Both the position numbers and the translations under genes were made by a program. A DNA stretch of 64,000 nt from Escherichia coli. GTDB taxonomy: Bacteria > Pseudomonadota > Gammaproteobacteria > Enterobacterales > Enterobacteriaceae. Under the pieces are notes generated by a model that saw nothing but the letters and a program-made list of their open reading frames with translations, searched no databases and was not told the origin of the DNA. Location: the NCBI RefSeq assembly GCF_003334785.1, contig NZ_QOWV01000006.1; one strand, written 5' to 3'. Shown in pieces: positions 35,041 to 36,081 of the stretch (the first letter of the stretch is position 1; each line of letters starts with the position of its first letter).

Positions 35041-36081
35041 ATGAAAAAAGTTTTATTACAAAACCATCCTGGGAGCGAGAAGTATTCTTTTAATGGCTGG
35101 GAAATATTTAATAGTAATTTTGAACGGATGATTAAAGAAAATAAGGCCATGCTGCTTTGTAAGTGGGGGTTTTATTTAACATGTGTTGTCGCTGTAATGT
35201 TTGTGTTCGCAGCGATAACATCCAACGGTTTGAATGAAAGAGGCCTGATTACCGCGGGATGCTCTTTTCTTTATCTATTAATTATGATGGGGCTTATTGT
35301 TCGGGCCGGTTTTAAAGCAAAAAAAGAATAACTGCATTATTATCAGGCTAAAGGTATTGAGCCGCTCAGTATCGAGAAGTTACAGGCGCTACAATTGATC
35401 GCACCTTATCGATTCTATCATAAGCAATGGTCTGAAACGCTGGAGTTCTGGCCGCGAAAGCCTGAACCTGGCAAAGATACCTTCCAATATCATGTGCTTC
35501 CTTTTGACTCGATCGATATCATAAGTAAAAGACGCGAGTCTTTAGAGGATCAATGGGGTATCGAAGATAGCGAAAGTTATTGTGCCTTAATGGAGCATTT
35601 TCTTTCTGGCGACCATGGAGCCAATACCTTTAAAGCAAACATGGAGGAAGCCCCAGAGCAGGTTATCGCCTTGTTGAATAAATTTGCTGTTTTTCCCTCA
35701 GACTATATCTCTGATTGCGCTAATCATAGCTCCGGTAAATCCTCGGCGAAGCTAATATGGGCGGCGGAATTATCATGGATGATCTCGATATCAAGCACAG
35801 CTTTTCAAAACGGGACAATTGAAGAAGAACTGGCCTGGCATTATATAATGCTTGCTTCTCGAAAGGCGCACGAGTTGTTCGAAAGCGAAGAAGATTATCA
35901 AAAAAATAGTCAAATGGGATTTCTTTACTGGCATATCTGCTGCTATCGCAGAAAGTTAACGGATGCTGAACTTGAAGCGTGTTATCGTTACGACAAGCAG
36001 TTTTGGGAGCACTACAGTAAGAAATGCCGTTGGCCCATAAGAAATGTTCCGTGGGGAGCATCATCCGTTAAATACTCATAA
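35041..36081 (+). pseudogene. ynjI: ynjI (inner-membrane DUF1266 protein) interrupted by in-frame TAA at 35329-35331
   Basis: Track ORFs 34918..35331 and 35395..36081 share one frame; ATG 35041 to stop 36081 is exactly 347 codons, matching the remembered 346-aa YnjI, with one internal ochre codon. Confidence 0.6.

Follow-up and report, generated by a model that had tools for sequence, protein, structure and literature searches.

Organization of the ynjI locus

The window, by which we mean the whole stretch of 64,000 nucleotides of Escherichia coli DNA that was analysed, contains the reading frame of ynjI between topB and gdhA (Table 1). The stop of topB lies at 34913 and is followed by a spacer of 127 bp, after which the start codon ATG of ynjI is found at 35041 with an AGGGA Shine-Dalgarno-like motif upstream of it. 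On the 3' side the frame is followed by gdhA on the opposite strand. This arrangement corresponds to the orthologous topB-gdhA position in K-12, with which the window is colinear over 63.9 kb.

Table 1. Features of the ynjI locus, given in positions of the 64,000-nucleotide window.
Feature	Position	Strand	Remark
topB-ynjI intergenic region	34914..35040	+	no SNP compared to K-12
ynjI frame (probable pseudogene)	35041..36081	+	347 codons, counting one internal and one terminal TAA
Premature ochre stop, codon 97	35329..35331	+	C to T at 35329, CAA (Gln) to TAA
Residual translatable ORF of 96 aa, with both predicted TM segments	35041..35328	+	translation, hydropathy
Orphaned 3' part of ynjI, TTG-started ORF of 228 codons	35395..36081	+	ORF list
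DUF1266-encoding region, wholly 3' of the stop	35539..36054	+	Pfam PF06889 match
gdhA, convergent 3' of ynjI	36198..37541	-	

Just after the topB stop, at 34950-34988, an AT-rich hairpin of 16 pairs with a T-run was observed. The hairpin is probably the terminator of topB, and it is located in the interval where the promoter of ynjI is expected. YnjI is described as an inner-membrane protein to which no function has been assigned (PMC3950696). BglJ-RcsB, on which expression of ynjI depends, activates the promoter, and a moderate rise in ynjI expression is seen without H-NS and StpA; because of these two observations a low expression of ynjI under standard conditions can be assumed (PMC3950696). 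A polar effect of a lesion in ynjI is not expected, since gdhA is convergent and no downstream gene is part of the ynjI transcript.

The premature stop codon

The initial annotation described ynjI as split by one in-frame ochre codon at position 97, and took two neighboring ORFs to be parts of a single gene of 347 codons. Direct comparison to K-12 MG1655 supports this description. The ORFs 34918..35331 and 35395..36081 share one frame, as their starts are 477 nucleotides (159 x 3) apart, and translation of the complete ynjI frame contains a single internal stop in addition to the terminal TAA at 36079-36081. The ynjI gene of K-12 MG1655 (b1762, NP_416276.4; annotated as DUF1266 domain-containing protein YnjI) has 1041 nt, which corresponds to 346 aa and a stop codon. 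The frame in the window is of equal length and is identical in 1040 of the 1041 nt, with the C to T change at 35329 as the sole difference, so that the proposed K-12-like YnjI of 346 aa is recovered in every codon except 97. The reference was also checked for the same TAA, and it carries CAA and represents one intact gene. Over all 1041 nt the window is identical to ynjI of strain VE-F10, which is annotated as a pseudogene by PGAP.

An intact orthologue with CAA at this codon is present in the close relatives K-12, EC416 and NCTC9087, which marks the stop as the derived state. Judged by these comparisons, ynjI of the window appears to be a genuine lineage-specific nonsense pseudogene. We consider it very probable that it is a recent loss-of-function pseudogene which arose through the C to T nonsense change at Gln97.

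Residual coding capacity

To describe what remains of the protein, scores against the family model NF008480 (NCBIfam; PRK11380 equivalog), with its curated cut-off of 386 bits, were compared. YnjI with Gln97 restored scored 671 bits and covered model positions 1-350 of 353. The 96-aa product of the native start reached 159.2 bits and falls under the cut-off, while the ORF beginning at TTG 35395 would, if translated, score 446.6 bits and exceed it. Because of the 671 bits of the restored sequence and the 159.2 bits of the 96-aa product, the locus has to be regarded as ynjI and its product as an incomplete YnjI.

The only Pfam domain of intact YnjI is DUF1266 (PF06889; residues 167-338, i-E 2.9e-25). 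It starts 3' of codon 97 and does not occur in the translated product; altogether the stop costs YnjI 72% of its residues, with DUF1266 among them. The two Kyte-Doolittle peaks (19-residue) are centered near residues 45-56 and 77-83. As both hydrophobic segments precede the stop, the N-terminal fragment of 96 aa with two TM segments that had been suggested for this locus is in agreement with translation and hydropathy. The stub ends in the basic stretch RAGFKAKKE directly before the stop. The position of this basic stretch after the second helix suggests that the C-terminal part of YnjI is cytoplasmic.

A search for relatives of YnjI in the PDB gave none at E<=1. A role of YnjI in anti-phage defence was considered and rejected, as the only match to the PADLOC models was a marginal one to a SLATT-like model over the TM region (E 0.017, 13 bits). 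Neither search thus gave a hint at the function.

Occurrence of the TAA allele in other genomes

We searched for the allele with a query of 61 bases centered on the SNP, which separates exact matches from those with one mismatch. The segment is contained in 3,447 complete E. coli genomes; eight of them fall into the identity band of at least 99%, and seven of the eight are listed. The T allele is thereby present in at least seven of the 3,447 genomes, counted as full-length exact matches among those listed. The seven listed carriers span six countries, and in all of them ynjI is annotated by PGAP as a pseudogene with "internal stop". Six of the seven have the same 1041 nt of ynjI as the window, and JKHS016 has an extra C to T change at 35252.

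The surroundings of the allele were compared over 40 kb centered on the SNP at 35329. Differences from the window amount to five in LR-64-2 (Ecuador, human), six in VE-F10 (Vietnam), six in PEC399 (South Korea, pig), eight in OZ121069 (isolate 364_BP0073; Cambodia, human urine) and nine in AST198 (Japan, human). For JKHS016 (Japan, hospital wastewater) 29 alignment columns differ, made up of 9 SNPs and two 10-bp indels, and B19374 (Ireland, seawater) shows 243 differences. K-12, which is not a carrier, has nine. Between astE and spy a 10-bp deletion was noted in JKHS016 compared to the window (54078-54087).

Over 24.9 kb the closest non-carriers, EC416 and NCTC9087, match the carrier LR-64-2 at every position but 35329, where they have C instead of T. 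It follows that the mutation is recent and took place on a common K-12-like haplotype. A different picture arises for B19374, in which a block of approximately 6.4 kb (about 30,000 to 36,386) matches the haplotype of the window and includes TAA, with divergent flanks on either side. The right breakpoint of the block is located in gdhA, at about 36387. This mosaic suggests that TAA was imported into B19374 by homologous recombination; alternatively, a second independent C to T change on the shared block could have led to the same allele.

Proposed explanation and dispensability of ynjI

The following course of events could account for the observations. A spontaneous C to T transition would have turned the Gln97 codon CAA into the ochre codon TAA, and ribosomes starting at ATG 35041 would terminate after 96 residues. 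The product would be a small hairpin of two helices, presumably inserted into the membrane, that lacks the C-terminal part including DUF1266, and the function of YnjI, whatever its nature, would be lost. The lesion may be tolerated because ynjI is dispensable and normally poorly expressed, with the convergent gdhA next to it. The allele would since have been carried along by a small K-12-like clade, and one mosaic genome has it as well.

That ynjI is dispensable and outside the E. coli core genome is evident from its distribution. By megablast and sensitive blastn the gene was found in 3,506 of 5,426 complete E. coli genomes, and it is absent from the other 1,920 even by sensitive blastn. In those genomes without ynjI that were inspected, the gap between topB and gdhA measures 76 bp and contains a REP-like palindrome (GCCGGATAAGGCG...).

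Further lesions occur in genomes that possess the gene. Three strains carry a copy annotated as "frameshifted": the G5 run at nt 124 of ynjI is extended by G in TUM11353 and by GG in GZEC065, and a T is missing at nt 130 in E3. The site of these frameshifts (ynjI nt 124-130) corresponds to 35164-35170 of the window, where the G5 run is followed by T4. Either a slippage hotspot or homopolymer errors in long-read assemblies may be the cause. Insertions of IS1 were found at codons ~220 and ~296 (~35697 and ~35925 in the window) in two other strains; for the ynjI segment, IS1 is present in 26 of the best 40 megablast rows, and EC24 carries two. In a heat-evolved laboratory strain, ynjI was reported to be interrupted by IS10 at codon 310, a lesion that the strain tolerated (PMC10044804).

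The combination of nonsense change, frameshifts, IS1 at no fewer than two sites, IS10 and absence of the whole gene, together with the block in B19374, leads to the idea that loss of ynjI is favored rather than tolerated. Alternatively, the 96-aa hairpin could have an activity of its own. Either of the two, if true, would indicate that an H-NS-silenced membrane protein with DUF1266 is costly to fitness or has a role under certain conditions. Many independent losses of ynjI make selection possible, and neutral decay explains them equally well. We regard favored loss or an active hairpin as unlikely, and a tolerated loss of function remains our preferred reading.

Translation restart and readthrough

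According to the initial annotation, a soluble C-terminal part of 228 aa could be made if translation restarts at TTG 35395. Our calculations argue against such a restart. The TTG codon is located 64 nt past the stop, and its Shine-Dalgarno pairing of -2.5 kcal/mol compares with -5.1 kcal/mol at the native start. Among the in-frame start codons that lie between the stop and DUF1266, none pairs more strongly than -2.5 kcal/mol. Codon 184, the first in-frame ATG after the stop, is already within DUF1266, and the only Shine-Dalgarno-like sites (-5.8) precede codons 211/212, so that proteins starting there would have a truncated DUF1266. Restart is improbable because the pairing is weak or the candidate starts are within DUF1266, and the TTG-started 3' ORF is probably not translated as a separate protein. 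Taken computationally, the stop removes the conserved part of YnjI and leaves no credible alternative start.

The orphaned C-terminal ORF has no further mutations. Such an intact ORF is expected for a young pseudogene and is also compatible with residual use. It could be argued that ynjI has become a split gene, in which the 96-aa stub is made along with a soluble DUF1266 protein that has its own start at or near TTG 35395, the two working jointly or each by itself; the downstream ORF is intact, in frame and above the NF008480 cut-off if translated, and termination-reinitiation at close-by start codons occurs in bacteria. The poor start sites described above speak against this, as does the fact that PGAP calls no separate gene there in the seven carriers. 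In addition, the arrangement was seen in only seven listed genomes of 3,447 and hence is not a conserved architecture. A functional split gene is very improbable on these grounds, and the loss of YnjI through the nonsense change is to be preferred.

We consider it very unlikely that readthrough or a suppressor tRNA overcomes the stop to an extent that useful full-length YnjI is still made. Misreading of UAA by a near-cognate tRNA-Gln would reinsert the original Gln, and there are stronger termination contexts than UAA with a C behind it, but no stop codon of E. coli is more efficient than UAA, and basal readthrough usually stays far below 1%. No tRNA genes were detected by ARAGORN in the 64-kb window. 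Programmed recoding would be accompanied by a conserved stop, whereas 3,439 of the 3,447 genomes have no exact match to the 61-mer with the T allele, and all inspected non-carriers have CAA.

Comparison to known alleles and significance

The ynjI gene of K-12 MG1655 shares its locus, its length and its upstream region with the window but encodes the full protein. The "internal stop" ynjI genes of the seven RefSeq carriers represent the same C to T nonsense allele as in the window, which is therefore very probably real but ordinary, being already annotated as a pseudogene in these genomes. The other natural null alleles of ynjI (IS1, frameshift, absence) have the same outcome, namely loss of the DUF1266 part. 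They differ in mechanism and lineage, as the lesion in the window is a nonsense change of one base that does not alter the length of the gene.

A related case is the amber codon at position 33 of rpoS in K-12 lineages. There, too, a C to T change has turned Gln into a stop in a gene that is not essential, and closely related strains differ in whether they carry it. In contrast to ynjI the rpoS allele is amber and not ochre, and phenotypes and selective explanations are known for rpoS and none for ynjI.

For the annotation of the window this means that ynjI should be given as a pseudogene (internal stop, codon 97) and not as two ORFs. The TAA allele can be used as a handy single-SNP marker for a small but geographically widespread group of K-12-like strains with an MG1655-like haplotype. 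Together with the other natural lesions it strengthens the case that E. coli can do without YnjI in most conditions. EC416 or NCTC9087 in combination with LR-64-2 provide natural pairs that are isogenic-like at the locus and might be used for probing the function of DUF1266.

Comparison of the complete window to K-12

Positions 75-64000 of the window are colinear with 1879837-1815912 of K-12 (reverse strand); 16 substitutions separate the two, and not a single indel. The substitutions comprise one nonsense change (ynjI), eight missense, five synonymous and two intergenic changes, and the stop in ynjI is the only truncating point mutation in this range. Three of the SNPs are private to the window when compared to K-12, the seven TAA carriers, EC416 and NCTC9087. 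These are a missense change in asparaginase I (ansA Gly184Asp, 28502) and synonymous changes at Asn28 of ydjA (31319) and Thr157 of xthA (47014).

A sequencing or assembly error at 35329, with ynjI intact in reality, might be suspected from the A-rich run gcaaaaaaagaaTAA that the site follows and from the existence of the three private SNPs, but the change is a substitution and not one of homopolymer length, lies outside GATC (Dam) and CCWGG (Dcm) motifs and is shared, on the same local haplotype as in the window, by seven independent assemblies from different laboratories in six countries, for which reason we reject error as the main explanation and give it next to no credence, an artefact common to so many independent assemblies appearing very unlikely.

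The initial annotation had further stated that all other genes match their K-12 length. This holds for the genes that are fully inside the window; the exception is yeaR at the left edge. Positions 1-74 are not of K-12 type. They belong to one end of an IS4-family (IS421-like) element that interrupts yeaR, and the junction at 74/75 corresponds to K-12 1879838/1879839 within the gene. Because of this insertion yeaR is a second disrupted gene. All top matches listed, with the K-12 derivatives Dam/Dcm and ET12567 among them, were 100% identical over positions 1-2400, which take in the yeaR junction. Annotation confirmed the insertion in Dam/Dcm only. Neither MG1655 nor the TAA carrier LR-64-2 has it, and LR-64-2 differs from the window in this respect. 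Its occurrence in both the window and K-12 derivatives could result from a target-site hotspot or from shared ancestry.
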